A stretch of 47,266 bases of DNA from Lutibacter sp. Lineage in GTDB: Bacteria > Bacteroidota > Bacteroidia > Flavobacteriales > Flavobacteriaceae. Of the stretch, positions 20,680 through 35,158 are shown piece by piece. Numbering within the stretch: position 1 is the first letter of the stretch; each line of letters opens with the position of its first letter. The DNA is taken from positions 1 through 47,266 of the forward strand of contig DPCK01000113.1 in the NCBI GenBank assembly GCA_003516285.1. Direction: 5' to 3'. The notes beneath the pieces are model-generated. The model did no database searches, was not told the DNA's origin, and saw nothing but the letters and a program-made list of their open reading frames with translations. The position numbers and the translations under genes were made by a program.

Positions 20680-20733
20680 TTTGGAAAACAAAAAAAAATA
20701 ATTAAATTTACTGACTGAGTGATTAGTCAATAA
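20680..20733 (+). promoter_or_regulatory. Promoter and TetR-type operator of the catabolic operon
   Basis: TTTG (20680) N19 TAAATTTA (20703); imperfect palindrome TTAC-TGACTGA-GTGA-TTAGTCA-ATAA at 20708-20733 covering the predicted start site. Confidence 0.65.
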
Positions 20734-20737
20734 TAAA

Positions 20738-21304
20738 ATGAATACAGAAAACTTAAAAAAAAACAAGAAAAACGCCAAGCAACAAATTTTAAATGTTGCT
20801 TTAGAAATGTTTGCATCACAAGGGTATCATAAAACATCCACAGGCGCAATTTGCAAAGAAGCAGGAATATCTGCCGGTTTGTTATTTTATCATTTCTCTT
20901 CAAAAGAGATTTTGTTAAACGCCATTGTGAAAATGATACTTTCAAAAATTGACGGGACTTTGGATTATCAAGAAAACGATGATCCCAAAAAAGTGTTGTC
21001 AAACATTATAGATGTGTTCTTTAACTCTTTACAAAATGACAGGAAATATTGGGATTTGTATATGTCTTTATTGTACCAGCCCGATACTAAAGATCAAATT
21101 GGAAAAGGGGTTTTGGAACATTCGATAAAATACAGGCGGACTATTTTTCATTTGATGGAGTCTTTGGGATCGGCCAATCCAAAAGGAGATTCATTTGAGT
21201 TTGAAGTTTTTCGTGTAGGTGTTTTTGCTTCGTATTTAGCCAATCATAGCGAAGAATTGTTAAAAAAAGCTAAAGAAAAAATGAGATTGAAGTATTTAGA
21301 ATGA
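20738..21304 (+). CDS. TetR/AcrR family transcriptional regulator
   Basis: ILNVALEMFASQGYHKTS..ICKEAGISAGLLFYHFSSKE HTH. Confidence 0.95.
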   Translation: MNTENLKKNKKNAKQQILNVALEMFASQGYHKTSTGAICKEAGISAGLLFYHFSSKEILLNAIVKMILSKIDGTLDYQENDDPKKVLSNIIDVFFNSLQNDRKYWDLYMSLLYQPDTKDQIGKGVLEHSIKYRRTIFHLMESLGSANPKGDSFEFEVFRVGVFASYLANHSEELLKKAKEKMRLKYLE

Positions 21305-21332
21305 ATTATTAACTAACCAAACTATTATTATC

Positions 21333-23783
21333 ATGAATCAAAAAATTTTAACTTTCCTGTTTGTTTTTTTTATCTCAGGAGTGATTTTCGCGCAAGGCGG
21401 AATTAAAGGAACTGTTGTGGATGAATCTGGAGTGGCTATTTCACAGGCCGAAGTTTTCATTAAAAGTACAAATCAAGGAACAATCACCAACAATAAGGGT
21501 GAATTTGAACTTAGTAATGTTACAAATGGAACTTATACTGTTTCCTTTATTTATATAGGATTTGTAACAGTTGACAAAAGTGTTACCATCAATAACAATG
21601 TTGTAAATCTTGGTGTAATTACCTTAAACAGCAGTTATCAGGTATTTGAGGAAGTGGTTGTTTCCGGGTCTCGAAAAATGGAAAAAATAACGCAAGCACC
21701 GGTTACAATTAACGTAATTAGCGCGCGACAGCTGGATAATTTTGTGGGTGATCCAAGTGAATTGATTGCCCAACAAAAAGGGATTGATTTTATCAAAACC
21801 GGTGCTTTTGTGAGCGGATTTAATATTCGCGGATTTAACTCGGCATTCAATCCTAAAATGTTGCAATTAGATGATAACCGCTTTTCAACACTTATCGCAA
21901 CAGGTTTGCCATTTGGACCATTAAGTTCCATCATAAAAGAAGATATTGAAAGGGTGGAAATCGTTTTAGGACCTTCATCTGCGTTATACGGACCAAATGC
22001 CCACAACGGATTGGTAAATACCATTACAAAAACACCTTGGAAATATGAAGGAACTGAAATTGTTTTAGGAGCGGGTTCTTACGATGCTTTAAGTGCTCGT
22101 TTTAGACATGCTAATATATTGAATGATAAATGGGCTTATAAAGTGACTGGCGGTTATGCGGAAGGAACTGACGTAAATTGGACCGATTCCGTGTATGTTT
22201 ATAACCCTGGAATCGCGAAACCTGAATTGGAACTTGACCGAAAATCTAAATTTTTAAAAGCAGAAGCGTCGGTTTATTACAAACCAACTACAGACAGTGA
22301 GGTAAAAGCCATTTACGGAACAAGTAAAAGCAGCTATTTGGCAGTTACAAATGTTGGAAGGAATCAAATTAAAGATTGGGGAATTCAATTTTTGCAAGGA
22401 ACCTATACTTCAAAACGTTTGTTTGCACAACTTTATAAAACCTGGAGTTCAACAGATGATACTTATGCCATCACTACAAGAACCGAAAATTATTGGAATT
22501 TAATTAAAGCAGGAAAAACAAATGAAGAAGCTTTAGTTGGATCCTATGGAGGGAATAATCCGCCAATTTTTGTCGATAAATCAGATCGTTTAAATGCGGA
22601 GGTTCAATACAATAACAGTATTGGCGGTTTAGATTTTATTATTGGGGTACAATATCAAAAAGATAAAGCCGACAGTAGGGATACTTATTTGTTGGATGCT
22701 ACAGGGCCAATTATTATTGAACAAAAAGGATTGTACGGGCAATTGGAATACAAAATAGGGGAATCAGGCGTAAAATTAATTGCTGCAGCTCGTGGTGATG
22801 ACCACGATTTATATGGATTCAATTTTATTCCTAAAGCCGGTATTACCTATACTGTTGATAAAGGTACTTGGAGATTTACTTACGGAAAAGGAATTGCTTC
22901 ACCAACAATTTTAAATTTAAGCGGTGATTTATTTGGCGGAATTATTTTAGGTAACGGCGAAGGATTTACCTTATCCGATGGTTCAAAAATAAAGCCGGTT
23001 GAAGTTGAGACTATTCAAACGTTAGAATTAGGTTACAAAGGTTTTTTATCCGAAGGAAAATTGTTTTTGGATGCAAATACCTACTATAATATGTCTGAAA
23101 ACTTCCTAAGTCCATTGATCAATATTGTGCCAACAGGTTTGGCCGGAGGTCCGGTTGTGACACATCGTGGAGATCAGCCAATTGAAGAATTAACGGTTGG
23201 TTTGGCGCCAGGATATTATGATGCCGGCGGTTATATTTTAACGTACTTAAACTTTGGGAAAGTTGATACTTACGGATTTGATCTTGGGTTGACTTATTAT
23301 TTCAATGAAAATTATAATATGACGCTTAACTATTCCTTTTTTGATTATAAATTGGATAAAAAGGATATGGCCAATGATGGAGACAAAAATGGTGTGGTAA
23401 ATGTATTAGATTTACCAATTAATACGCCGAAAAATAAAATAAGTTCTTCTTTTAACTTTACCCGTAACAAATTTTATGGGTCAATCTTATCTCGTTACAT
23501 TCAAAAGTATGATTTCTTTTCAGGAAGAAATGTGGCTGCCAAAACCAATACAGATTTAATAATTGGAGGAGATCCTGTTGTTGAAGGCCAACGAGTTGGA
23601 AAAAAATTCAATTACGGTCAGTTAGGCGGTTTCTTCTTAAGCTTAAATTTAGGCTATAATATTAATGACCACTTTTCATTAGGTGCTTATGTAAACAATA
23701 TTTTGGACACAAACAATTATGAATTTGTGGCTTCGCCGCCAAGTGAGAGAACTTTCGGTGCAGAGTTGAAAATAAAATTCTAA
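21333..23783 (+). CDS. TonB-dependent receptor (non-SusC type, no susD partner)
   Basis: Signal peptide, CarboxypepD-like N-domain, EEVVVSG TonB box region, IERVEIVLGPSSALYG plug motif, terminal Phe. Confidence 0.92.
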   Translation: MNQKILTFLFVFFISGVIFAQGGIKGTVVDESGVAISQAEVFIKSTNQGTITNNKGEFELSNVTNGTYTVSFIYIGFVTVDKSVTINNNVVNLGVITLNSSYQVFEEVVVSGSRKMEKITQAPVTINVISARQLDNFVGDPSELIAQQKGIDFIKTGAFVSGFNIRGFNSAFNPKMLQLDDNRFSTLIATGLPFGPLSSIIKEDIERVEIVLGPSSALYGPNAHNGLVNTITKTPWKYEGTEIVLGAGSYDALSARFRHANILNDKWAYKVTGGYAEGTDVNWTDSVYVYNPGIAKPELELDRKSKFLKAEASVYYKPTTDSEVKAIYGTSKSSYLAVTNVGRNQIKDWGIQFLQGTYTSKRLFAQLYKTWSSTDDTYAITTRTENYWNLIKAGKTNEEALVGSYGGNNPPIFVDKSDRLNAEVQYNNSIGGLDFIIGVQYQKDKADSRDTYLLDATGPIIIEQKGLYGQLEYKIGESGVKLIAAARGDDHDLYGFNFIPKAGITYTVDKGTWRFTYGKGIASPTILNLSGDLFGGIILGNGEGFTLSDGSKIKPVEVETIQTLELGYKGFLSEGKLFLDANTYYNMSENFLSPLINIVPTGLAGGPVVTHRGDQPIEELTVGLAPGYYDAGGYILTYLNFGKVDTYGFDLGLTYYFNENYNMTLNYSFFDYKLDKKDMANDGDKNGVVNVLDLPINTPKNKISSSFNFTRNKFYGSILSRYIQKYDFFSGRNVAAKTNTDLIIGGDPVVEGQRVGKKFNYGQLGGFFLSLNLGYNINDHFSLGAYVNNILDTNNYEFVASPPSERTFGAELKIKF

Positions 23784-23808
23784 GATATTCAATCATGTTT
23801 TGTTAATT

Positions 23809-23843
23809 AAGAACATCGGTTTTTTTTGCCGATGTTCTTTTCT
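23809..23843 (+). terminator. Intra-operon hairpin / leaky terminator after the TonB receptor
   Basis: AAGAACATCGG-N9-CCGATGTTCTT followed by TTCT. Confidence 0.6.
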
Positions 23844-23863
23844 AAAAACTTCAAATTAACTTT

Positions 23864-24703
23864 ATGGAGCATCGCTTTTTAAAAGCCAATGGCATTGAGC
23901 TCCATTATTTGGAGAAAAACAGCAAACTTAAGCCAACCATAATTTTGTTGCACGGATTAAGCGCAAATGCCAATTCTTTTGAAAGTTATATGAAGCTTTT
24001 GGAAAATTATAGGGTAATATCAGTTGATTTACGTGGCAGAGGTTTAAGCGAAAAACCCAATAACGGATATTCGATGCAATCGCATGCAAAAGATATTATT
24101 GAAATGATGGATGTTTTAAAAATTGACGAAGTAATATTGGCAGGCCACTCTTTTGGTGGATTGTTGAGTGTTTTTTTGGCAGTGCATTATCCAAAACGTA
24201 TATCAAAAATAATTTTGATTGATGTAGCCGCAAAAATGCATCCGGAAGTTCGAGAATTGGTAACGCCATCCGTTATGAGTCGGCTAAAAAAAACATGGAG
24301 CACTTATAATGAATACATTGAAAATATGAAAAAAGCACCTTTTTTACAAGGGCAATGGTTGCCAGAAATGGAATCATTTTATAAAGCTGATTGCAAAGAA
24401 ACTGAAAACGGCATTGAGTCGAGATCAAATTTCGAGCATATTCAACAAGCAGTTGAGGCTGTTTTAAATCCCGGTATTCATTGGGAAGAACTAATCACTC
24501 AAATAAAACAGCCTTCAATTGTTATAAATGGCACAGAACCTTTTGTGAATAATCAGGTGTTGGTATCAAAACAACATGCAATGGAAACAGTTCATATGAT
24601 GAAAAACTGCAAATATATTGCAGTGGCAGGAAATCATGTAACCATGCTATTTGGTAAAGGAGCGAAACAAACAGTTTCGGCAATTACAAAATTTATAAAC
24701 TAA
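23864..24703 (+). CDS. Cytoplasmic alpha/beta-fold serine hydrolase (esterase)
   Basis: LLHGL oxyanion loop, DLRGRGLS, GHSFGG nucleophile elbow, GNH catalytic His; no signal peptide. Confidence 0.88.
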   Translation: MEHRFLKANGIELHYLEKNSKLKPTIILLHGLSANANSFESYMKLLENYRVISVDLRGRGLSEKPNNGYSMQSHAKDIIEMMDVLKIDEVILAGHSFGGLLSVFLAVHYPKRISKIILIDVAAKMHPEVRELVTPSVMSRLKKTWSTYNEYIENMKKAPFLQGQWLPEMESFYKADCKETENGIESRSNFEHIQQAVEAVLNPGIHWEELITQIKQPSIVINGTEPFVNNQVLVSKQHAMETVHMMKNCKYIAVAGNHVTMLFGKGAKQTVSAITKFIN

Positions 24704-24708
24704 AAAAA

Positions 24709-26217
24709 ATGACTTTAGCGTGGATTCTTTTTACAATATATTTACTGGGAACTTCCTATTTAGGTTGGATTGGCTATAAAAAAACAGACGGTTTTAGCAG
24801 TTTTGCCATAGGGAAAGGAGATATGTCTCCAATTGTTGTTGGAATTACTTTAGCCGCAAGTACTGCTTCAGCAGCAACATTTATTATAAATCCGGGATTT
24901 ATTTATGTTGATGGATTATCGGCTTGGATAAATATGTTTTTAGGAACCTATTCAGGATTTATGATTATGCTTATTATTTTATCTTTTAAGTTTAGGTCGA
25001 TGGGTGAAAAAATGAAAGCGTTAACTATTCCCGATTGGATTGGCAAACGCTATCTGTCCAAAGATTTTTCATTGTATTTTGCCTTTATAAATTTATTGTC
25101 TTTTGCATTTGTGGTTTTGTTGGTGGGCGGAATTTCTATTGTTATGCAAAAACTGCTTGGCGTCAATAACATCACAGCGCTCTTAATTACCTTAATATTT
25201 GTTACCGGCTATGTTTTTTTGGGCGGAACTTATGCCCATGTGTATACAAACGTTTTTCAGGGTATTTTAATGATTGTGGTTTCCTGTGCAATATTATGGA
25301 CCGGAATTGAGCTGATGATGGAAACCCATGACCCTGGATTTTGGGAGCAAATTTCACAGAAAGATCCAAATTTACTGAAACTTATAAATCCCGAAGGGAA
25401 ATTATTCAACGATTTCTTTTCAACTTATGTTGCGGGATTTTTTATTGGCGCTGCCTTAGTGTGCCAACCCCATATTTTGACAAAGGCATTGTATGTAAGA
25501 ACAAATAAGGATGTCCGAAATTATATCATTGTGGTTGGTGTTGTACTGTTGTTGTTTTTATTGTTGGTTTCTGCTGGTTTCTTCGCACACATTACGGTTG
25601 ATCCGGCGCAGCTTATAGATCCTTCAACCGGTGAGTTTAGGCAAGATTTGGTGATGACGGTTTATTTAGCAAATGCTTTTCCCGATTGGACTTTTACCGT
25701 GGTAAGTATTGTGTTATTAGCTGCAGCAATGTCAACCCTGGATGGATTGCTGGTAAGTATTTCCACAATTACCGCAAATGATTTGGTCATTAATCTAATT
25801 AATAAATTCAGTAAAAAGGAAATATCTGAAGAACAAAAAATGAAATTATCTTTTAGGGTAAGTCATTTGGTGCTTATTGTAATCGCGATTATGGTTTTTG
25901 TGGTTAACATAAATCCGCCAAAATTGTTGGGAATTTATGGACAAGTTGGTGTTTACGGATTGGTATTGGCCGCTTTAGCTCCTTTATTGGTGGGTGTTTT
26001 ACTAAAAAACTCACCATTAAAACTATTATGGACATCCTCAATTCTCGCGATAATTACGCATTTCGTGTTGTACTTTTATGGAAATGAATTATTTCCAAAT
26101 TCTGGATTTACATTTGCAAATCCTTCTGTAACAGCTGTATTGTCAATTATTTTAGTAATTTTTCCTACCTTAGTTATTGCTTGGTTTCTCAATAAAAAAA
26201 TTATTGAAAATGAATAA
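24709..26217 (+). CDS. Sodium:solute symporter (SSS, PanF/PutP-like)
   Basis: About 13 hydrophobic segments, SAATFIINPG, TIPDWIGKRY, YVFLGG, AAAMSTLDG Na-site motif. Confidence 0.9.
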   Translation: MTLAWILFTIYLLGTSYLGWIGYKKTDGFSSFAIGKGDMSPIVVGITLAASTASAATFIINPGFIYVDGLSAWINMFLGTYSGFMIMLIILSFKFRSMGEKMKALTIPDWIGKRYLSKDFSLYFAFINLLSFAFVVLLVGGISIVMQKLLGVNNITALLITLIFVTGYVFLGGTYAHVYTNVFQGILMIVVSCAILWTGIELMMETHDPGFWEQISQKDPNLLKLINPEGKLFNDFFSTYVAGFFIGAALVCQPHILTKALYVRTNKDVRNYIIVVGVVLLLFLLLVSAGFFAHITVDPAQLIDPSTGEFRQDLVMTVYLANAFPDWTFTVVSIVLLAAAMSTLDGLLVSISTITANDLVINLINKFSKKEISEEQKMKLSFRVSHLVLIVIAIMVFVVNINPPKLLGIYGQVGVYGLVLAALAPLLVGVLLKNSPLKLLWTSSILAIITHFVLYFYGNELFPNSGFTFANPSVTAVLSIILVIFPTLVIAWFLNKKIIENE

Positions 26218-27391
26218 AAATGTCCATATTATCGGTGCCTATAACACAAAGTTTGGCAATCTTAAAGATGAAACTATTTATAGCCTGTATGAAGAAGCTG
26301 CAAAAGGTGCCATTAATGATGCAGGTATTGATATCAATGAAATTGATGCGGTGTTTGTTGGTAATTATAGCGGCGGAAGCTTTAACAATCAGGAACATAT
26401 TGCGCCTTATGGCGTAAATATTTTGCCTGAACTGCGCTTTAAACCTATGTATAGAGCCGAAAATGCCTGTGCTTCTGGCACTTCCGCCATTCATTTGGCC
26501 GAAATGGCCATTAAAGCGGGGAAAGCAAAAAAAGTTTTGGTGATTGGGGTTGAAAAAATGAATTCTTTGGACACTAAAAATACTTCACTTGCACTTGCAA
26601 AAGCGTCATACTGGGAAAAAGAAGGAAATTTGGGTTACACTTTTCCAGGATTATTTGCCGAATACGGAAAAGGATGGATGAGCCATTATGGCTATTCACT
26701 AGAACAATTGCAAGAATATTTAGCCGAGATAGCTTCAAAAGCATATGATTTTGGAAGCCAGAATCCTTTAGCACATATGCAAAAATCGCGCAGTAAAGAA
26801 GAGCTTTTAAATCTACCCGATGAAAAAAATCCAATGATTGCCTATCCTTTGCGTTTGCACGATTGTTCGTTGATTTCTGACGGCGCAGCAGCCGTCATTT
26901 TATCGGCAGAAAAAACAAACAATTCAGTAGAAATAGTTGCAACAAGTTCAGCCAGTGATTATTTAAATATTATAGAAAGTAAAAGAAATAATTACTTTCT
27001 TGACGGCGCTTCCGAAGCAACAAAAAGAGCTTTGCAACAGGCTAAAATGACTATTGATGACATTCAAATTGCCGAAGTTCACGATTGTTTTACCATCACG
27101 GAATTGTTAATTTATAGCGCTATCGGATTGACAAAAAAAGGAAATGAATTTGAAGCTTTGTTAAATAATGATGTTTATTTGGGCGGAAGGTGTGTTATAA
27201 ATCCATCGGGAGGATTAAAATCAAAGGGACACCCTGTTGGTGCAACAGGTGTTTCCATGCATGCGCTGTTATACAAACAACTTACAGATAACGCCATTGG
27301 CGCGCGGGTAAAAAATGCGAATGCGGCTTTGGTATTAAATATTGGAGGTTCAGGAGCAACCAATATGGTTTCAATTTTAAAACGCAGTTAA
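26210..27391 (+). CDS. SCP2-type thiolase (acetyl-CoA C-acyltransferase)
   Basis: ENACASG, SDGAAA, EVHDCF, NPSGGL..KGHPVGATG; no C-terminal CxGGG; start at 26210 overlaps the SSS stop. Confidence 0.9.
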   Translation: MNKNVHIIGAYNTKFGNLKDETIYSLYEEAAKGAINDAGIDINEIDAVFVGNYSGGSFNNQEHIAPYGVNILPELRFKPMYRAENACASGTSAIHLAEMAIKAGKAKKVLVIGVEKMNSLDTKNTSLALAKASYWEKEGNLGYTFPGLFAEYGKGWMSHYGYSLEQLQEYLAEIASKAYDFGSQNPLAHMQKSRSKEELLNLPDEKNPMIAYPLRLHDCSLISDGAAAVILSAEKTNNSVEIVATSSASDYLNIIESKRNNYFLDGASEATKRALQQAKMTIDDIQIAEVHDCFTITELLIYSAIGLTKKGNEFEALLNNDVYLGGRCVINPSGGLKSKGHPVGATGVSMHALLYKQLTDNAIGARVKNANAALVLNIGGSGATNMVSILKRS

Positions 27392-27411
27392 TATAACTAC
27401 AAAACACAAAT

Positions 27412-28398
27412 ATGAGAAATGCAAAAATAATAGGTTCGGGAATGTATGTGCCGAAAAAGGTGATTCCCAACAGTTATTTCAATGAAATTTTGCAGGAAGA
27501 CGTAGACACTTGGTTGCGCGAAAATGTACAAATTTATGAAAGACGATGGTGTGCTGATGATGAATCTACAGCCGATTTATGTGTAAACGCGGCCAAAGAA
27601 ATTTTAAAAAATGCCAATATAAAAGTCGAAGATTTAGATTTAATTATTATTTCGACTGATACGCCGGAATATATTTCGCCTTCAACTGCTTCCGTGGTGC
27701 AAGACCGATTGGGCGCAGTAAATGCTGGGACTTTCGATTTAAATTCAGCCTGTTCGGGGTTTGTGACGGCATTGGATGTGGGGGCCAAATATATTCAGGC
27801 CGATGAAAATTATAAATATATTTTGGTGTTGGGCGCTTATGCAATGTCGAAACACTTAAATAAATTGGATAAAAAAACGGTTACGTTGTTTGCTGATGGC
27901 GCTTCAGGTGTCATTTTAAAATCAGATGAAAGCGGCGCCGGAATGTTGATGTCACAATTAAAAACGAAAGGCGAATACAGCAGTTGGATGGGCATTTACG
28001 GCGGTGGAACACACAGTCCAACGACAGAAGCCAATTTAAAAACCGGCGATCATCAATTAAAATTCGTCAGAAAATTTCCGAAGGAATTGAATTCTGTCAT
28101 TTGGAGCAATATGATTATTGATTTATGTAAGCGCATAGATTTAACGCCACACGATATTGACCATTATTTTATCACGCAAATAAATATAAATAGCATCAAA
28201 GAAACGTTGGATATTTTAGGTGTTGGAATGGATAAAACAACCACCATCATGCATAATTACGGTTATACAGGATCGGCTTGTATTCCAATGGCTTATCATG
28301 AAGCTATTCAAAAAAATAAAATTAAAGAAGGGGATACAGTATTATTTATAGGTTCTGGGGGCGGATTGGCTTTTGCGGGCTCAATATTTAAATTATAA
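27412..28398 (+). CDS. FabH/KAS III-fold protein with non-canonical active site
   Basis: GSGMYVP, FDLNSACSGF, LFADGA, GSGGGL; HQAN replaced by TQIN and GNT replaced by GYT. Confidence 0.88.
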   Translation: MRNAKIIGSGMYVPKKVIPNSYFNEILQEDVDTWLRENVQIYERRWCADDESTADLCVNAAKEILKNANIKVEDLDLIIISTDTPEYISPSTASVVQDRLGAVNAGTFDLNSACSGFVTALDVGAKYIQADENYKYILVLGAYAMSKHLNKLDKKTVTLFADGASGVILKSDESGAGMLMSQLKTKGEYSSWMGIYGGGTHSPTTEANLKTGDHQLKFVRKFPKELNSVIWSNMIIDLCKRIDLTPHDIDHYFITQININSIKETLDILGVGMDKTTTIMHNYGYTGSACIPMAYHEAIQKNKIKEGDTVLFIGSGGGLAFAGSIFKL

Positions 28399-28405
28399 AT
28401 AAACA

Positions 28406-29911
28406 ATGGAAGTTTGGCAACAGGATTGGATGGCAAAATGGGCGGTTTATTCGCCGCACAAAATTGCTTTAAAAGAGTTTGAAACAGGAAATACGCTAAG
28501 TTATTTGCAGTTGAATTCATTGGGCAATAAATTGGCCTTCTATCTAACGGAACAGTTGAATTTAATAAAAGGTGACCGTATTGCTTTTGTTGCCGAAAAT
28601 TGTTTGGAATATTTGTTATTTTTTGTGGCAGCACAAAAAACGGGGATTATTTTAGTTCCTTTAAATTATCGGTTAACAACTGTTGAATTGAATCATTTAA
28701 TAGAAATTTCAGATCCAAAATTTATTGTACACGACAAAGTTTACAAGGAAAAAGTTTCTCAAACGGAGTTTTCAAAAAACAAATTGGGTGAAGTTTTTGA
28801 GATGACCGATTTTTCTCAAATACTTAAAAATCTTGAGGTTGAAAAATGCAATGCTGATTATCCCATAAATATTGTTGATGAAAACCATCCGATTTTTATT
28901 TTATTTACTTCGGGAACAACAGGCATCCCAAAAGGCGCTATGTACACCCATAAAATGTTGTTTTGGAACAGTATCAATACAGCAATTAGTTTGGTGATTA
29001 ATTCAGAAACAAAAACTATTAATTGTATGCCGCCTTTTCATACTGGAGGCTGGAATGTATTGGTAACTCCAGTGCTTCACCACGGAGGGAGTTTGGTTAT
29101 TATTAAATCATTTTGCGCTAGAACAATATTAAAGTTAATTGAAAAAGAGCAGTTTACTTTGTTTATGGGGGTTCCAACGATGTTAAAAATGATGTCGGAA
29201 GAACCTTCATTTCAAACAACCAATTTTTCAAGTTTAATGTATTGTATTGTTGGTGGTGAAGCGATGCCAATTCCTTTAATTGAAGCTTGGAAAGAACAAG
29301 GTGTTTTAATTCGTCAGGGTTATGGATTAACAGAAGTTGGTCCAAATTTAACTTCCCTGCACCAAGATGATGCCATAAGGAAAAAAGGATCCATTGGCCG
29401 ACCAAATTTTTACGTACAAACAAAAATTGTGGATGAAAACGGTGTTGAAGTCGGTAAAAATCAAAAGGGAGAATTGTTGTTAAAAGGACCAATGGTTTCA
29501 CCTGGATATTGGAAAAATGAGCAGGCAACCAATGAATCTTTAAAAGATGGCTGGTTTTTTACCGGTGATGTGGTAATCCGCGATGATGAAGATTATTTGT
29601 TTGTGGTTGATCGCATAAAAAATATGTTTATATCGGGTGGTGAAAATGTTTATCCGGCCGAAATTGAACGTGTACTTCAAGAACATCCTTCAATTTTGGA
29701 GGTCGCTGTTGTTAGCGTTCCTAATGAAAAATGGGGTGAAGTGGGAAAAGCTTTTGTGGTTGCTTCTGAAAAATCACTTACTCAAACAGAAATATTGGAT
29801 TATTGCAAAATCAAATTGGCAAAATTTAAAATCCCAAAATATATAGAATTTATAAAGGAGATTCCTAAAAACGATACCGGAAAAATAGACAGAAAATTAT
29901 TAAAAAAATAA
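28406..29911 (+). CDS. AMP-forming acyl-CoA synthetase/ligase
   Basis: FTSGTTGIPKG, GYGLTE, TGD, DRIKNMFISGGENVYPAEIE, PKNDTGKI. Confidence 0.92.
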   Translation: MEVWQQDWMAKWAVYSPHKIALKEFETGNTLSYLQLNSLGNKLAFYLTEQLNLIKGDRIAFVAENCLEYLLFFVAAQKTGIILVPLNYRLTTVELNHLIEISDPKFIVHDKVYKEKVSQTEFSKNKLGEVFEMTDFSQILKNLEVEKCNADYPINIVDENHPIFILFTSGTTGIPKGAMYTHKMLFWNSINTAISLVINSETKTINCMPPFHTGGWNVLVTPVLHHGGSLVIIKSFCARTILKLIEKEQFTLFMGVPTMLKMMSEEPSFQTTNFSSLMYCIVGGEAMPIPLIEAWKEQGVLIRQGYGLTEVGPNLTSLHQDDAIRKKGSIGRPNFYVQTKIVDENGVEVGKNQKGELLLKGPMVSPGYWKNEQATNESLKDGWFFTGDVVIRDDEDYLFVVDRIKNMFISGGENVYPAEIERVLQEHPSILEVAVVSVPNEKWGEVGKAFVVASEKSLTQTEILDYCKIKLAKFKIPKYIEFIKEIPKNDTGKIDRKLLKK

Positions 29912-30706
29912 ATGATGAGCATAAAAAATAAAGTTGCAGTAATTACAGGAGGCGCCAGTGGAATTGGAGCAGGTGTCGCCGTAGAATTAGCTAAATTGGG
30001 TGTTAAAATTGTTCTTGGAGACATGAATGAAGAAGGCTTAAATGCCAAAGTTGAAGAAATTCGAAAAAATGGAGGTGAAGCCATTGCGGTGAAAACAAAC
30101 GTCAGCCAAGAAGCCGATGTCATTAAATTAATGGATGCAGCGATAGAAACCTATGGTGCCATAAATATTGTAGTGCCTTCCGCAGGAATATTTAGGGATG
30201 CGTTTATGGTGAGCCCAGATCGGGAAACGGGAAAAGTATTTAAAACAATGAGCACTTCGCAATTTATGGATGTGATTAACGTAAATTTATTGGGAACGTT
30301 TTTAACCATACGTGAAGCTTCTATCAGAATGATTAATCATAAGTGCGAAGGCGTATTATTTACAATTTCTTCCATTAATAAAGAAGGTCAGTTAGGCCAA
30401 TTAAATTACAGTTCAACAAAAGCTTCCGTGGCATTATGGCCAAAAATATTGGCTGGCGAGTTTCACGCAAAAAATGTAAAAGGAATTCGCGTTGTGGGTA
30501 TTGCTCCTGGTTATGTGGAAACGCCGTTATTACTGGGAATGAAACCCGAAGTGTTGGAAAGTATTGTTAAGGACGTAACCATTGGAAGATTGGTTAAAAT
30601 TGATGAAATTGTAAACGCCTTAATTTTTGCCATTCAAAATGAAGCAGTTACCGGAACTACGCTTGAAATTACTGGAGGCGTTATTTCTAGAGGACTGGTA
30701 AAATAA
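29912..30706 (+). CDS. Classical SDR, FabG/PhaB-like 3-hydroxyacyl-CoA dehydrogenase/reductase
   Basis: TGGASGIG, GDMN, SAGIFRD, YSSTK, IAPGYVET. Confidence 0.88.
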   Translation: MMSIKNKVAVITGGASGIGAGVAVELAKLGVKIVLGDMNEEGLNAKVEEIRKNGGEAIAVKTNVSQEADVIKLMDAAIETYGAINIVVPSAGIFRDAFMVSPDRETGKVFKTMSTSQFMDVINVNLLGTFLTIREASIRMINHKCEGVLFTISSINKEGQLGQLNYSSTKASVALWPKILAGEFHAKNVKGIRVVGIAPGYVETPLLLGMKPEVLESIVKDVTIGRLVKIDEIVNALIFAIQNEAVTGTTLEITGGVISRGLVK

Positions 30707-30736
30707 GAGATTTCTATTCTTTTAAATTGAAATACA

Positions 30737-31702
30737 ATGATTAAAAAAGTTCAAAAAATTATCGGGTTGTTTTTGTTGCTGACGAGTTTTCAGCTCATTT
30801 CCCAAAATAGTTTGGTTGAAATCACCGACTTTGGTGCCAACAAAGGAAATTTGGAAATGTACGTTTATAAGCCGATAAATAACGATTTGAAAGTGCCTTT
30901 GGTGGTGGTTTTGCATGGTTGCGTTCAAACAGCCAATGAAATTGCAGAACAAAGTGGATGGAATACTTTAGCGGATGCCAATAATTTTATGGTAATTTAT
31001 CCCCAGCAAAAAGTGGAGAATAATTTAAACAAATGTTTTAATTGGTATGAAAATTTGGATATTTCCAAGAATGACGGGGAATCTGAAACCATCAAAGAAA
31101 TGATTCAATATGCCATTCAGAATTTTGATGTTGATCCTTCAAAAATTTTCGTGACAGGCATTTCAGCAGGCGGAGCAATGGCAAATGTGTTAATGGCGAA
31201 TTACCCGGATTTGTTTAAATCAGGGGCTATTATGTCTGGAATTCCTTTTAAAGCAGCTAACGATTTAGCGACAGCTTATGCCGCAATGCAAGGAAAAGTT
31301 GAAAAAACACCCGATGAATGGGTGACTTTAATAAGCAATAATAATCCGAATTATGAAGGAAAATATCCAAAAATCGTTATTTTTCATGGCACTGATGATC
31401 CGTTTGTGAATGTAAAGAATGCCGAAATAATTGAAATTCAATGGAAAGGAATTCATAAAATAGCTAGCGATCCAGCAATTATTCCTGAATTTAATGGAAA
31501 TCCTGAAATTGCCAAAACCACTTACTTCAAAAATAATTGTCCGATAATTGTTAAATACGAAATTAACAACCTTGGCCACGCTATGGCGGTTGATCCCGGG
31601 ACAGAAAAACAGCAGGGAGGAAATGTCGCCAGATTTGCGTTGGATAAAAATTTTCACACCACTTATTGGACGGCCAAATTTTTTGGAATGATAAGCGATT
31701 AG
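30737..31702 (+). CDS. PHB depolymerase family esterase (scl-PHA depolymerase catalytic domain type 1 / LpqC-like), Sec-exported
   Basis: Signal peptide, FGANKGNLEM, LHGCVQ, YPQQ, CFNW, GISAGG lipase box, FHGTDD, LGHA, terminal FFG. Confidence 0.85.
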   Translation: MIKKVQKIIGLFLLLTSFQLISQNSLVEITDFGANKGNLEMYVYKPINNDLKVPLVVVLHGCVQTANEIAEQSGWNTLADANNFMVIYPQQKVENNLNKCFNWYENLDISKNDGESETIKEMIQYAIQNFDVDPSKIFVTGISAGGAMANVLMANYPDLFKSGAIMSGIPFKAANDLATAYAAMQGKVEKTPDEWVTLISNNNPNYEGKYPKIVIFHGTDDPFVNVKNAEIIEIQWKGIHKIASDPAIIPEFNGNPEIAKTTYFKNNCPIIVKYEINNLGHAMAVDPGTEKQQGGNVARFALDKNFHTTYWTAKFFGMISD

Positions 31703-31739: not shown

Positions 31740-32774
31740 TTAAAACTTTATAAAAAGTTTTTTTGTTGACTCCCGTTCTACCAGTTTTGTTTTAACTATT
31801 TCAGTTTTAACGTCATCAAATTCAATTTTTTCTTCAATTTTATTTATCAATCGTGTTGCGGCAATTTCGCCGGTTGTATGGGCAAAACGATTCACGGCGG
31901 TTAAAGGCGGAATGGTATATCTCGATAAAATTCCGTTGGTAAAACTTACAATGGAGATATCTTCCGGTACTTTTATGCCTCGCGCATTTAAAACTTGTGT
32001 GGCAACGGCGCCCGAAACTTCGTCGATAATAAACATCCCGTCCACTAGGTTATTGTCTAACATTTTATTAATGCGTTCTTTCAAATGTGTTTCGTCTTCG
32101 AGTCTTAAAATCAGATTTTCATTAGGCGTAACATCGTGTTTTGTAAGTGCTTTTAAATAGCCGTTAACGCTAAACTGGCCAATATTTATTTCTTCGTCAG
32201 TGGAGATAAGCGCAATATTTTTACAGCCTGATTTCATTAAAAAACGGGTAGCTTTGTAACCGCTTTTAACATTGTCGGTCACAACTTTGTCACAATGAAT
32301 ATCAATATGAACGCGGTCATACAATACAATGGGCGTTCCTTCTTCCAAAATGAGGTTAAAGTGCTCGAAATTTCCAATTCGCATAGTTTCTTCTGAAATG
32401 CAGGCAATAAATCCGTCAATAGTTCCGTTTGAAAGCATTTCCATCGTGTCCACTTCTTTTTTGAAGGATTCATTGGTGATGCAGGTAATGATATTGTACC
32501 CTTTTTCAGTAGCCACTTTTTCAATACCGCGAAGCACTCTGGCAAAATAATAATTTAAAATATTAGGCAGTATGATACCAATGGTTTTTGTTTTTTTATT
32601 TTGCAAACTCAAGGCCAGTGTATTGGGCTTGTATTTGTGCAATTTGGCATATTCCTGAATTCGTTTTTTGGTATCGTCACTAATTTCATAGCTGTCGTTT
32701 AACGCTTTTGAAACCGTTGAAATAGAAACTTGCAATGCCAGTGCAATTTGCTTTATAGTGATTCTTTTACTCAT
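31740..32774 (-). CDS. LacI family transcriptional regulator
   Basis: TIKQIALALQVSISTVSKALN HTH, YKPN, VPEDISIVSF, LVEREST. Confidence 0.95.
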   Translation of the reverse strand: MSKRITIKQIALALQVSISTVSKALNDSYEISDDTKKRIQEYAKLHKYKPNTLALSLQNKKTKTIGIILPNILNYYFARVLRGIEKVATEKGYNIITCITNESFKKEVDTMEMLSNGTIDGFIACISEETMRIGNFEHFNLILEEGTPIVLYDRVHIDIHCDKVVTDNVKSGYKATRFLMKSGCKNIALISTDEEINIGQFSVNGYLKALTKHDVTPNENLILRLEDETHLKERINKMLDNNLVDGMFIIDEVSGAVATQVLNARGIKVPEDISIVSFTNGILSRYTIPPLTAVNRFAHTTGEIAATRLINKIEEKIEFDDVKTEIVKTKLVERESTKKLFIKF

Positions 32775-35158
32775 TTTTTTGGTGAAATAGTTAGTTTTGT
32801 GGAAATCTGTTTAATTTCTTCTTCATTCAATTTCATTTTTCTGAATTTGCCTTTGTTGTACATTTCAGCCTGATCTTTATAATGTTTGCTGAAAGGGTTT
32901 CCCGATTGCCCCGTCGGTACTATGCTGATGCTGTTTTCAACATCAGAAAAATCGATGATTCTTCTGGTTGAAGGACCAGCATTTACTTTATACAATCCAG
33001 AATCCGTATAGTTGAAACCCAGATTGTTAATCACTTCTCGTGCGCCATCTATTGGAAACGGACCCACATTAAAATACCGTTTTAAGGCAGCCACTTTACC
33101 AAGCGGATGTTCGTGCTCTAAGGTATGAACTTTTCCCCAATTCCAATCCAAAATGTCATTTCCAAGTTGCTTTTCCATTGATGCGACCGCTTCAGCCAAA
33201 GATCTTGACAGAATTTCTTTTCTGGTTTCTGTTTTGTTTTTGGTCGTTACATTATCCCACCAAATAGAATTTTCCTTTTCAATTTGTTCGGCAATTGTTC
33301 TTTTTGACAAATGTGTCGCTAAAAATTGGGTGAACAATTTCTCGCCCATTTCATCTTCAAAAGTGTTTTTTAAATATAGGTAAATCCATTTGTTATAAAT
33401 GGTTGGCGACACTTGGTCAACCGTATTTGAGCCGTCCCAAAGTTGAAGGATATCTATGGCTTTTTGTTCGCTTTTGCTAAAAGAACCATAATCCATAATT
33501 TTTGCAAATTCTTTGACCAATTCTGGTGCCACAGATGAAGTGACATCCGTAATCATAGCCGACATAGATTCCTTGTTCCAGTTATCTTTTGGTTCCAGCA
33601 GTTGCACAATGCGTCTGGCTCGATCTTCGGACAAATAATAACCGGGATACAGCATATTTGCAATGGAATCGGGCTGGTTGTTGGCGGAATACACATAATT
33701 CCAGGGCGGGTTTTCAGCCATCGGGTTTTCGCTGAAATCTAAATATTCAATAGGATCATCATCACCGGAAGCACCGTTTAAAATAAAATTTCTGTTAATT
33801 CCTGGCTTTAATTTGTACAATTTTCCCGTTGCCCACCAGGCTACATTTCCTGCTGCATCACCATACATAATATTCAATCCAGGCGCGTGAATCATAGATG
33901 CTCCTTTTTTAACGTCTTTCATTTCGGTTGCTCTTGAAATGGTATAAAGCGCAGCCAAAACTTCTACGTCAAATTGGGTGTAAATCCAAGACATCGCAAT
34001 GGGTTCTGTTTGCGTAATTGCTTCAAGCGCATCATTCATAATTGGACCGTGGCGCGAATTTCTTACCGTAATGGTTACATCATCGGCATCTTTTACTTTT
34101 ATGGTTTTGGTGAGCGTTTTGTAAGTTTCAAATCCGGTAGACGTTTTGTATTTTGTATTGTCTGTTGGGTCATTTTCTTCTTTATAAAAATCAATATCGT
34201 CATTTTCAAACATCGTCAATCCGTAGGCATATTTACGATTATGTCCCAATAAAGGAAAAGGAACACCCGCCAAATGATATCCGTACATTTCATAATCGGG
34301 CGTTACAATATGCGCTTCATACCAAACTGCCGGCTGCGAATAGGCGATGTGTGGATCGTTTGCAAAAAGCACTTTTCCTGTGGCCGATTTTTTAGGGGAA
34401 ACTACCCAACTGTTGCTTCCGATAAAAGGAGGAATTGGGGATTTTTCCATCACCTCATTAACATTTGCAACCATTTCAGAAAAATCGGTAATGTTTTCCT
34501 TTGAATTTTTGATGAATGTGGTATTTGGCCCGATTTCAATATTAAGTTCCTTTAAATAATCATCGCCTAATTTATCTTTTAGGATACTTAATAGCGGATC
34601 GGTTTTTTGGGCCATCGCAAAACTGAAAGACATATAGCCCAAAATATTGTAGATGTCGTTGAGTTGATAAGGTTCTTTTTCGATGCCAATTAAAGTGAAT
34701 TCAATAGGCGTTGGGCCGTTTTCAATAAATTGGTTAACACCGTTTAAATAAGCGGTTGCCAATTTGTAGACTTCCCCATTTTTGTCTAATTTTTCCATTG
34801 ATTTTCTGGATGCTTCTTCAATGCCTAAACTCACAAAAAATTGGTCGTTTTTGAGCATATCTTTTCCAAAAATTTCGGACAGTCTTCCCGGCGCAATTCT
34901 TCGCATCAACTCCATTTGCCAAAGTCGGTCCTGCGCATGAACGTAGCCTAAAGCTGTTGAAGCATCTAATTGGTTTTGAGCATAAATATGCGGAATTCCA
35001 TAATCATCAAAATATACAGAAGTCTCATTTTCAATGCCTGATAAAGCGATTTCACCTGAATAATCAGGTTTTAGGCTGTTAACATACACCCAGCCGCCAA
35101 TTAAAATCAGGGCGATTAGAACGCCAAAAATGAGTAAGATTTTTTTAAAAATGCGCAT
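32771..35158 (-). CDS. Penicillin acylase family Ntn-hydrolase
   Basis: N-terminal anchor, GIPHIYA, HAQDRLWQM, GSNSW nucleophile, ANDPH, SANN, GQSGNPFSKHY. Confidence 0.92.
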   Translation of the reverse strand: MRIFKKILLIFGVLIALILIGGWVYVNSLKPDYSGEIALSGIENETSVYFDDYGIPHIYAQNQLDASTALGYVHAQDRLWQMELMRRIAPGRLSEIFGKDMLKNDQFFVSLGIEEASRKSMEKLDKNGEVYKLATAYLNGVNQFIENGPTPIEFTLIGIEKEPYQLNDIYNILGYMSFSFAMAQKTDPLLSILKDKLGDDYLKELNIEIGPNTTFIKNSKENITDFSEMVANVNEVMEKSPIPPFIGSNSWVVSPKKSATGKVLFANDPHIAYSQPAVWYEAHIVTPDYEMYGYHLAGVPFPLLGHNRKYAYGLTMFENDDIDFYKEENDPTDNTKYKTSTGFETYKTLTKTIKVKDADDVTITVRNSRHGPIMNDALEAITQTEPIAMSWIYTQFDVEVLAALYTISRATEMKDVKKGASMIHAPGLNIMYGDAAGNVAWWATGKLYKLKPGINRNFILNGASGDDDPIEYLDFSENPMAENPPWNYVYSANNQPDSIANMLYPGYYLSEDRARRIVQLLEPKDNWNKESMSAMITDVTSSVAPELVKEFAKIMDYGSFSKSEQKAIDILQLWDGSNTVDQVSPTIYNKWIYLYLKNTFEDEMGEKLFTQFLATHLSKRTIAEQIEKENSIWWDNVTTKNKTETRKEILSRSLAEAVASMEKQLGNDILDWNWGKVHTLEHEHPLGKVAALKRYFNVGPFPIDGAREVINNLGFNYTDSGLYKVNAGPSTRRIIDFSDVENSISIVPTGQSGNPFSKHYKDQAEMYNKGKFRKMKLNEEEIKQISTKLTISPKK

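Follow-up and report, generated by a model that had tools for sequence, protein, structure and literature searches.

A cluster of nine plus-strand genes (Table 1) on a contig of Lutibacter sp. (GenBank assembly GCA_003516285.1, contig DPCK01000113.1) probably scavenges soluble oligomers of poly-(R)-3-hydroxybutyrate (PHB), or of a similar short-chain polyhydroxyalkanoate (PHA), and catabolises them as coenzyme A (CoA) esters without BdhA. The whole stretch of 47,266 nucleotides that we analysed is hereafter called the window, and the nine genes the cassette. Judging from the genes and their relatives in other genomes, we give this reading a probability of roughly 0.65. The first-pass annotation of the window had proposed a unit for an acyl ester that is already (R)-3-hydroxylated, with PHB fragments as the most likely substrate and a CoA-ester route free of BdhA. 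The first proposal is supported by the esterase, the short-chain dehydrogenase/reductase (SDR) and the PHA-linked loci described below. The second is consistent with the host genome (G000, 89.5% complete), in which no BdhA was found above the cut-off (best 195 bits, cut-off 307).

In the proposed route, oligomers released by the depolymerases of other cells or by lysis would enter through the TonB-dependent receptor and would be trimmed by a periplasmic depolymerase that has no polymer-binding or secretion domain. The Na+ symporter would bring in monomers to trimers, and the ligase would form their CoA esters. The cytoplasmic hydrolase would split the remaining ester bonds, most likely together with the FabH-like enzyme. 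The SDR would then oxidise (R)-3-hydroxybutyryl-CoA with NAD+ to acetoacetyl-CoA, from which the SCP2-type thiolase would form two molecules of acetyl-CoA.

The esterase is the only one of the nine gene products that passed the cut-off of a specific curated family (Pfam, NCBIfam), with 269.7 bits for NF050058 (cut-off 150) and 189 bits for TIGR01840 (cut-off 108). Its comparison with PDB 8daj gave an E-value of 2.9e-37. According to passages of PMC9601781, type 1 depolymerases carry an oxyanion motif HGCxQ before the lipase box G-(L/I)-S-(A/S)-G, followed by Asp and His, and the characterised LtPHBase is an active enzyme of 322 residues with the HGCxQ motif. The esterase showed all four motifs in the depolymerase order, with HGCVQ at 60-64 and GISAG at 141-145, then D221 and H281. 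In the HGCxQ motif it resembles LtPHBase, unlike the feruloyl esterase with HGCLG and the xylan esterase with HYCTG. These fungal enzymes have a second disulfide that the esterase of the cassette lacks. The model showed a single domain of 298 residues, and neither a linker nor a substrate-binding domain was found in the protein. Since the N-terminus resembles a signal peptide and the protein has neither a lipobox Cys nor a type IX secretion system (T9SS) tail, its predicted location is the periplasm rather than the cell exterior. The earlier description as an exported short-chain-length PHA depolymerase of type 1 thus stands as far as motifs, cut-offs and N-terminus are concerned, and is to be modified in the location. 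The esterase may act on PHB rather than on feruloyl or acetyl esters.

The SDR showed its best NCBIfam match with PRK08217 (235 bits, cut-off 298), and scored 143.8 bits against the PhaB model TIGR01829 (cut-off 302.1). Of the former label FabG/PhaB-like, the FabG type could therefore be retained and PhaB could not. The YxxxK catalytic motif and the closest structural relative fit an (R)-3-hydroxyacyl-CoA dehydrogenase, which is the likely function of the SDR. An Asp residue is located after beta-2; in SDRs, Asp at this position indicates a preference for NAD. Since ordinary 3-hydroxyacyl-CoA dehydrogenases are encoded elsewhere in the host genome, the SDR of the cassette likely supplies the other stereochemistry. 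The thiolase named in the first-pass annotation is present, and is of the SCP2/archaeal type rather than PhaA or FadA. Its best matches were PRK07516 (399 bits, cut-off 412) and the archaeal acetoacetyl-CoA thiolase 6esq (E 1.2e-56), and it has an N-terminal Cys, an HDCF loop and a GHP loop, which we take to be the motifs of SCP2-type thiolases. It is likely to be an acetoacetyl-CoA thiolase. The gene of an OB-fold partner was not found in the five cassette-bearing Lutibacter genomes; such a partner accompanies this type of thiolase in L093, L119, L160, L182 and L186, which are among the related loci that we retrieved.

The cytoplasmic alpha/beta hydrolase matched no specific family above cut-off and is likely to be an oligomer or ester hydrolase. 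Membership of the cluster hydrolases in the i_nPHAscl family was considered and not counted (83-113 bits, cut-off 300). The ligase matched best the NCBIfam model PRK06839 (441 bits, cut-off 748). No cassette gene matched the acyl-CoA dehydrogenase or enoyl-CoA hydratase families in Pfam or NCBIfam, as had been noted at first pass. The host genome encodes a ScoAB-type CoA transferase pair. The PHA synthase PhaC was not found in this genome, and a PHB-type substrate would therefore be external. The receptor scored 73.7 bits against the SusC/RagA model (cut-off 368) and has homologs with 43-52% identity in related clusters of Saprospiraceae. No match to SusD, glycoside hydrolase or polysaccharide lyase families was found among the nine genes (Pfam; for SusD also NCBIfam). 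The cassette had been likened to a polysaccharide utilization locus (PUL). It works like one and is not a member of that class, since it has no SusC/SusD.

The FabH-like protein carries the name of a fatty-acid synthesis enzyme in databases. It retains the nucleophile Cys114 and has Thr255 in place of His and Tyr285 in place of Asn; the Cys-His-Asn triad of the condensing KAS III enzymes is therefore absent. Residues C114, Q256, N258 and Y285 were invariant in all 33 aligned homologs, and the score against TIGR00747 was 218 bits (cut-off 292). A residue count over 112 rows was set aside, as its rows had been pre-filtered on the Cys and Gln/Asn motifs and the count was partly circular. We predict a non-condensing acyltransferase from these substitutions. 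In FabH, the His and Asn residues stabilise the enolate. Because the FabH-like enzyme has lost these residues and coexists with a true thiolase, and because ester-forming KAS III homologs exist and PhaZ1 offers a precedent for thiolysis, we tentatively favour, at somewhat less than even odds, a CoA-dependent ester thiolase that would catalyse (3HB)n-CoA + CoA -> 3HB-CoA + (3HB)n-1-CoA, where 3HB is 3-hydroxybutyrate. The chief competing role is that of a 3-oxoacyl-CoA thiolase, because a thiolase is missing from 100 of the 114 related loci described below; we consider it somewhat less likely than ester thiolysis.

Among named relatives, Lutibacter metagenome-assembled genomes are the closest. 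Within the genus, the FabH-like gene was found in 5 of 36 genomes. The same order of nine genes was observed in four relatives, and in the fifth the genes lie on a short, truncated contig. A depolymerase scoring above 260 bits was present in exactly the same 5 of 36 genomes. The genes yifB and lacI, which flank the cassette, are adjacent in all five cassette-free Lutibacter genomes tested. The cassette is thus an insertion, one mobile unit, in one Lutibacter clade, and both facts indicate that the depolymerase belongs to the inserted unit.

Outside the genus, the FabH-like gene, to which the first-pass annotation assigned no role, is the most conserved part of the cassette. Of 8000 candidates scored, at least 5776 belong to its family, and the gene marks 43 of 300 sampled Bacteroidota genomes and 53 of 201 Saprospiraceae genomes. 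We defined the core as the FabH-like protein with the CoA ligase, the FabG-type dehydrogenase, transporters and a hydrolase, and surveyed 114 core loci from outside Lutibacter without dereplication; 90 of these loci are 14 kb or longer and 24 are shorter. The ligase was present in 104 of the 114, the FabG-type SDR in 93 and a hydrolase in 89; the inner-membrane transporter was of the SSF family in 89 and of the MFS family in 11. A MaoC-family hydratase was found in 7 loci and a thiolase in 14, enoyl-CoA hydratase in none and acyl-CoA dehydrogenase in one. The absence of the hydratase and the acyl-CoA dehydrogenase, recognised at first pass for the cassette, is a conserved trait. An outer-membrane module, either a receptor or a pair of a lipoprotein and a membrane protein, was found in 85 of the 90 longer loci, and both occurred together in one locus only.

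In about 55 related loci, roughly half of the core loci (for example L080:14064-14600 and L089:14421-15983), a lipoprotein of about 178 residues and a protein of about 520 residues replace the TonB receptor. The larger partner has no Pfam or NCBIfam match, and the Atlas gave a weak lead to alginate export (17% of members). This pair is a candidate for a new outer-membrane uptake pair. The Atlas searches gave no clue to the substrate. A conserved protein of about 468 residues without a Pfam match adjoins the SDR or the hydrolase in 18 loci of Saprospiraceae and Cytophagales (L046:5932-7338). A second clade of FabH-like proteins (PRK06840), with a Cys/His/His-type rewiring, was observed in related clusters (L134:4368-5390, L136, L095:11894-12889 and L152:12399-13454), and together with the FabH-like enzyme of the window type in 2 of the 114 core loci. 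Tandem open reading frames, presumably flagellin-like from their N-terminal sequence, lie near the cluster in two Bacteroidota genomes (L125:15649-19899 and L129:1-4273).

Genes dedicated to PHA were found next to relatives of the ligase. A Ralstonia megaplasmid locus found by the ligase search (L096) has the order TetR, LivABC, ligase, double MaoC, 3HB-oligomer hydrolase and PhaZ. In L156 and L212 the gene after the ligase encodes an oligomer hydrolase, and in L171 (11473-12495) a class III PhaC-like gene (221 bits, cut-off 365), which might run in the degradative direction, directly follows the ligase in an uptake cluster. In total, ligases of this sister clade adjoin the oligomer hydrolase in three loci, PhaZ in one and the PhaC-like gene in one. 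The locus L163, with a FabH-like gene of the window type and a ligase of the Ralstonia type, MaoC and FabG, bridges both types. Butyrate-class CoA transferases were found in L093, L152 and L161. MaoC-family hydratase genes lie beside the sister-clade ligases in Alpha- and Betaproteobacteria, and the alphaproteobacterial clusters have MaoC plus enoyl-CoA hydratase where Bacteroidota have the FabG-type SDR; we infer that these are two ways of handling (R)-3-hydroxyacyl-CoA. Niveispirillum has a version of the cluster with a TonB receptor.

The linkage of the oligomer hydrolase is not constant, as four of five other plasmid loci examined (L140-L143) have no such cluster. In Ralstonia L140 (11989-14163), the oligomer hydrolase lies before clpB, and the uptake cluster that surrounds it in L212 is absent; this Ralstonia record appears to have lost the cluster. 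The L212 locus presumably mirrors the phaY1 locus of C. necator H16; the literature on H16_A2252 and the supplement of PMC3734047 gave no match. The oligomer hydrolase and the PRK06840 clade were not seen together in the few loci of Burkholderiales type, which hints weakly that they have the same place in the pathway. Ligase clusters of Bacillus, Brevibacillus and several metagenome loci (L095:12883-14748, L099, L185, L188 and L209) repeatedly contain the gene of a large NHL-repeat protein. In a Bacillus PRK06839/PRK06840 locus where we had expected a PHB depolymerase, the neighbouring gene encodes the NHL-repeat protein instead.

Co-occurrence was then analysed among the 201 Saprospiraceae genomes. 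A close depolymerase homolog was found in 8 of 53 genomes with the core and 1 of 148 without it (Fisher p 1.1e-4, related genomes not being independent); that is, 8 of 9 genomes with the homolog carry the core, against a base rate of 53/201. The eight genomes fall into about five groups in a FastTree of the FabH-like gene that included 20 of the 53. In the four such genomes whose depolymerase neighbourhood was read, the gene lies apart from the core and its product is predicted to be a lipoprotein or T9SS cargo. Of the 53 core-positive genomes, only 4 yielded a BdhA, with at most 12 candidates scored per genome. A phylum-wide association between the FabH-like gene and NF050058 (8/43 versus 10/257) was rejected as evidence, because 7 of the 8 hit regions examined belong to another subfamily or are too weak (at most 28% identity). 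The one close depolymerase homolog among these regions (G145) stands alone in a core-negative genome.

Several facts weigh against the PHB-oligomer reading, in addition to the kinship of the Saprospiraceae genomes and the depth of the BdhA search. Neither the depolymerase nor the oligomer hydrolase was found in any of the 114 core loci. The co-occurrence of the depolymerase with the other genes, which the first-pass annotation had named as a check, therefore holds as linkage in the Lutibacter clade and as genome-level association in Saprospiraceae, and fails in the other core loci. A close depolymerase homolog is absent from 45 of the 53 core-positive Saprospiraceae and from 46 of 50 other core-positive genomes; either such carriers would live as secondary consumers, or the core serves a different substrate. 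For the Ralstonia-type ligase group, 80 metagenome loci were surveyed, about 30 of which have related clusters as judged by eye; only 3 of the 80 contain a PHA gene, and aromatic-type neighbours occur at L159, L223 and L227. Passages of PMC12103068 describe the Esterase_phb family as a mixture of PHB depolymerases, feruloyl esterases and xylan esterases. The Asp motif of the esterase, GTDDPFV, deviates from the consensus GxxDYTV. Foldseek barely separated the PHB depolymerase from the fungal esterases (E 4e-27 versus 5e-25), and the target TM-score was higher for the fungal enzymes. The closest PDB match of the ligase is the feruloyl-CoA synthetase 8wev (E 6e-94), followed by FadD13. A feruloyl-type ligase of Rhizobium (L098) falls on a long branch in the same starred clade of a quick tree as the Ralstonia ligase. 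The ligase tree therefore cannot assign the substrate, and it was dropped as substrate evidence, as PHB and hydroxycinnamate contexts are not resolved from each other in it.

These facts leave room for other substrates. The core may scavenge longer (R)-3-hydroxy or 3-acyloxy fatty acids of dead bacteria, from lipid A, ornithine or serine lipids or rhamnolipid-type esters, the depolymerase being a local add-on or a broad esterase. The medium/long-chain type of the ligase, with FadD13 as its next structural match, and the many core-positive genomes without a close depolymerase homolog would fit this explanation, and the (R)-specific chemistry suits it no less; in chemical terms, an acyloxyacyl bond and the bond of a 3HB dimer are the same. 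The inner-membrane partners, however, are of the SSF, MFS or Liv-type ABC families, which serve small polar solutes. Butyrate-class CoA transferases in related clusters and the dedicated PHB genes linked in several lineages also argue against it, and we regard it as improbable. Still less probable is the use of hydroxycinnamoyl (feruloyl or coumaroyl) esters, in which the esterase would free ferulate, the ligase would activate it, and the SDR and the thiolase would shorten the side chain. The feruloyl-CoA synthetase match, the Rhizobium ligase in the sister clade and the similarity of the esterase to a fungal feruloyl esterase in sequence (E 4e-32) and fold are in its favour. This pathway, however, needs an enoyl-CoA hydratase, which is found neither in the cassette nor in the core loci; of the five cassette-bearing genomes, none has an intradiol dioxygenase or a GH10 xylanase and only two have a LigB-family gene, and the HGCxQ motif is PHBase-like.

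Biosynthesis should also be considered, since the FabH and FabG folds are usually anabolic: the FabH-like protein, the FabG-like SDR and the thiolase could build an acylated metabolite for export. The condensing His and Asn are replaced, however, and no acyl carrier protein gene was seen among the open reading frames of at least 90 codons listed for the cassette. The transporters of importer families, the two hydrolases and the SDR with its NAD-type Asp also point to catabolism, and we consider biosynthesis very improbable. A further-reaching possibility, which we regard as doubtful, is that the PHB-oligomer reading of the cassette extends to a widespread, undescribed pathway, in which FabH-like enzymes would cleave the oxoester bonds between 3HB units by CoA thiolysis, with counterparts in Proteobacteria, Bacillota and Chloroflexota.

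The nine genes, all intact, span 20738-31702. All genes named in the first-pass annotation are intact and co-oriented, and its count of nine includes TetR, so that eight genes lie behind the regulator. The successive intergenic gaps are 28, 80, 5, -8, 20, 7, 0 and 30 nt (range -8 to 80), with ATG at 26210 chosen as the start codon of the thiolase. The palindrome reported before tetR is present. Its core, TGACT-N8-AGTCA, matched once in the window and never in 100 shuffles, and is identical in both relatives (L007 and L008) whose upstream region was retrieved, of five examined. A genome scan with TGACTNA-N4-TNAGTCA, allowing one mismatch, gave the site before tetR and three weaker sites elsewhere. 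The palindrome is inferred to be the binding site of the TetR regulator, which matched no NCBIfam equivalog above cut-off. A promoter and terminator scan of the cassette gave results near chance level. Sequencing runs containing this DNA are from groundwater, sediment and rock porewater. RNA contigs from a single groundwater sample match portions of several genes in the cassette as well as both flanks, which is not proof of transcription or induction. Next to the cassette and outside it, a LacI regulator and a penicillin-amidase-family gene (31740-35158, minus strand) are conserved Lutibacter neighbours.

Table 1. Features of the cassette, with positions in the window
Feature	Length (aa)	Positions	Strand	Remarks
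Palindromic putative TetR operator		20708..20733	.	core TGACT-N8-AGTCA at 20712-20729; 4 nt before tetR start codon
TetR-family regulator	188	20738..21304	+	PF00440, E 6.7e-17
TonB-dependent receptor	816	21333..23783	+	PF00593, PF07715, PF13715; not SusC-type
Cytoplasmic alpha/beta hydrolase	279	23864..24703	+	PF00561; GHSFG (Ser96); no signal peptide
Sodium:solute symporter	502	24709..26217	+	PF00474, E 4.7e-40
SCP2/archaeal-type thiolase	393	26210..27391	+	ACASG; HDCF at 291; GHP at 340
FabH/KAS III-like protein	328	27412..28398	+	Cys114, Thr255, Tyr285; model pLDDT 89.7, FabH fold
Acyl-CoA ligase, medium/long-chain type	501	28406..29911	+	PF00501
SDR	264	29912..30706	+	YSSTK motif; best PDB 2et6, (3R)-hydroxyacyl-CoA dehydrogenase, E 4.8e-40
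Type 1 scl-PHA-depolymerase-family esterase	321	30737..31702	+	catalytic domain only; H60-G-C-V-Q, S143, D221, H281

Passages of the review literature present PHB breakdown as depolymerase plus BdhA, and those passages mention no transporter of 3HB or 3HB oligomers. If the PHB-oligomer reading is correct, the cassette would provide candidates for the outer- and inner-membrane importers as well as a BdhA-independent route, and the Cys/Thr/Tyr FabH-like gene would be a sequence marker for consumers of PHB fragments that are missed by depolymerase-based surveys. If the FabH-like enzyme is an ester thiolase, one ATP-dependent activation would yield several 3HB-CoA. If the pathway is widespread, its carriers would be secondary consumers, so far overlooked, of PHB in nature and of PHA bioplastics. 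These points bear on the biodegradation of bioplastics and the recycling of microbial biomass. The architecture is likely undescribed, as had been suspected: a full-text literature search, in which subscription journals and classical PHB work were thinly covered, found no description of it.

Among known systems, classical extracellular PHB degradation by secreted PhaZ, PhaY, BdhA, CoA transferase and thiolase (passages of PMC13373117 and PMC3430594) shares with the cassette the type 1 depolymerase family and, probably, the substrate and the end product. The sister-clade ligase adjoining the oligomer hydrolase in Ralstonia- and Cupriavidus-like loci is a further link. Unlike the classical system, the cassette has dedicated outer- and inner-membrane importers, a depolymerase without binding or secretion domain and, in place of BdhA, a CoA ligase, an (R)-type SDR and a non-condensing FabH-like enzyme. 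Bacteroidota PULs, with SusC/SusD, have the same logic of regulator, TonB uptake, periplasmic trimming, symporter and cytoplasmic catabolism in one locus, whereas the cassette has no SusD, no SusC-type receptor and no glycoside hydrolases, and its substrate would be a polyester. The polyethylene-glycol (peg) operon of sphingomonads (PMC11644497, legend of Fig. 10) likewise combines a TonB receptor (PegB) with a permease (PegD) for a polymer that is not a glycan. It differs in the oxidative attack on a synthetic polyether, and has no depolymerase and no FabH-like enzyme.

The hydroxycinnamate CoA pathways (Rhizobium L098, PDB 8wev) have the closest structurally solved ligase, of the same broad clade; the cassette differs in lacking genes for a hydratase/lyase, an aldehyde dehydrogenase and ring cleavage. 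Fold searches with the FabH-like protein and the esterase gave only the expected folds. The FabH-like protein shares the fold (query TM-score about 0.9) and the nucleophilic Cys with the FabH/KAS III enzymes of S. aureus (1zow) and E. coli (1hn9), and differs from them in Thr for His, Tyr for Asn and a context outside a fab operon. For the reaction proposed here, a precedent is found in R. eutropha PhaZ1: although this is an unrelated protein that acts on intracellular granules, passages of PMC3430594 describe a CoA-driven release of 3HB-CoA from PHB esters.

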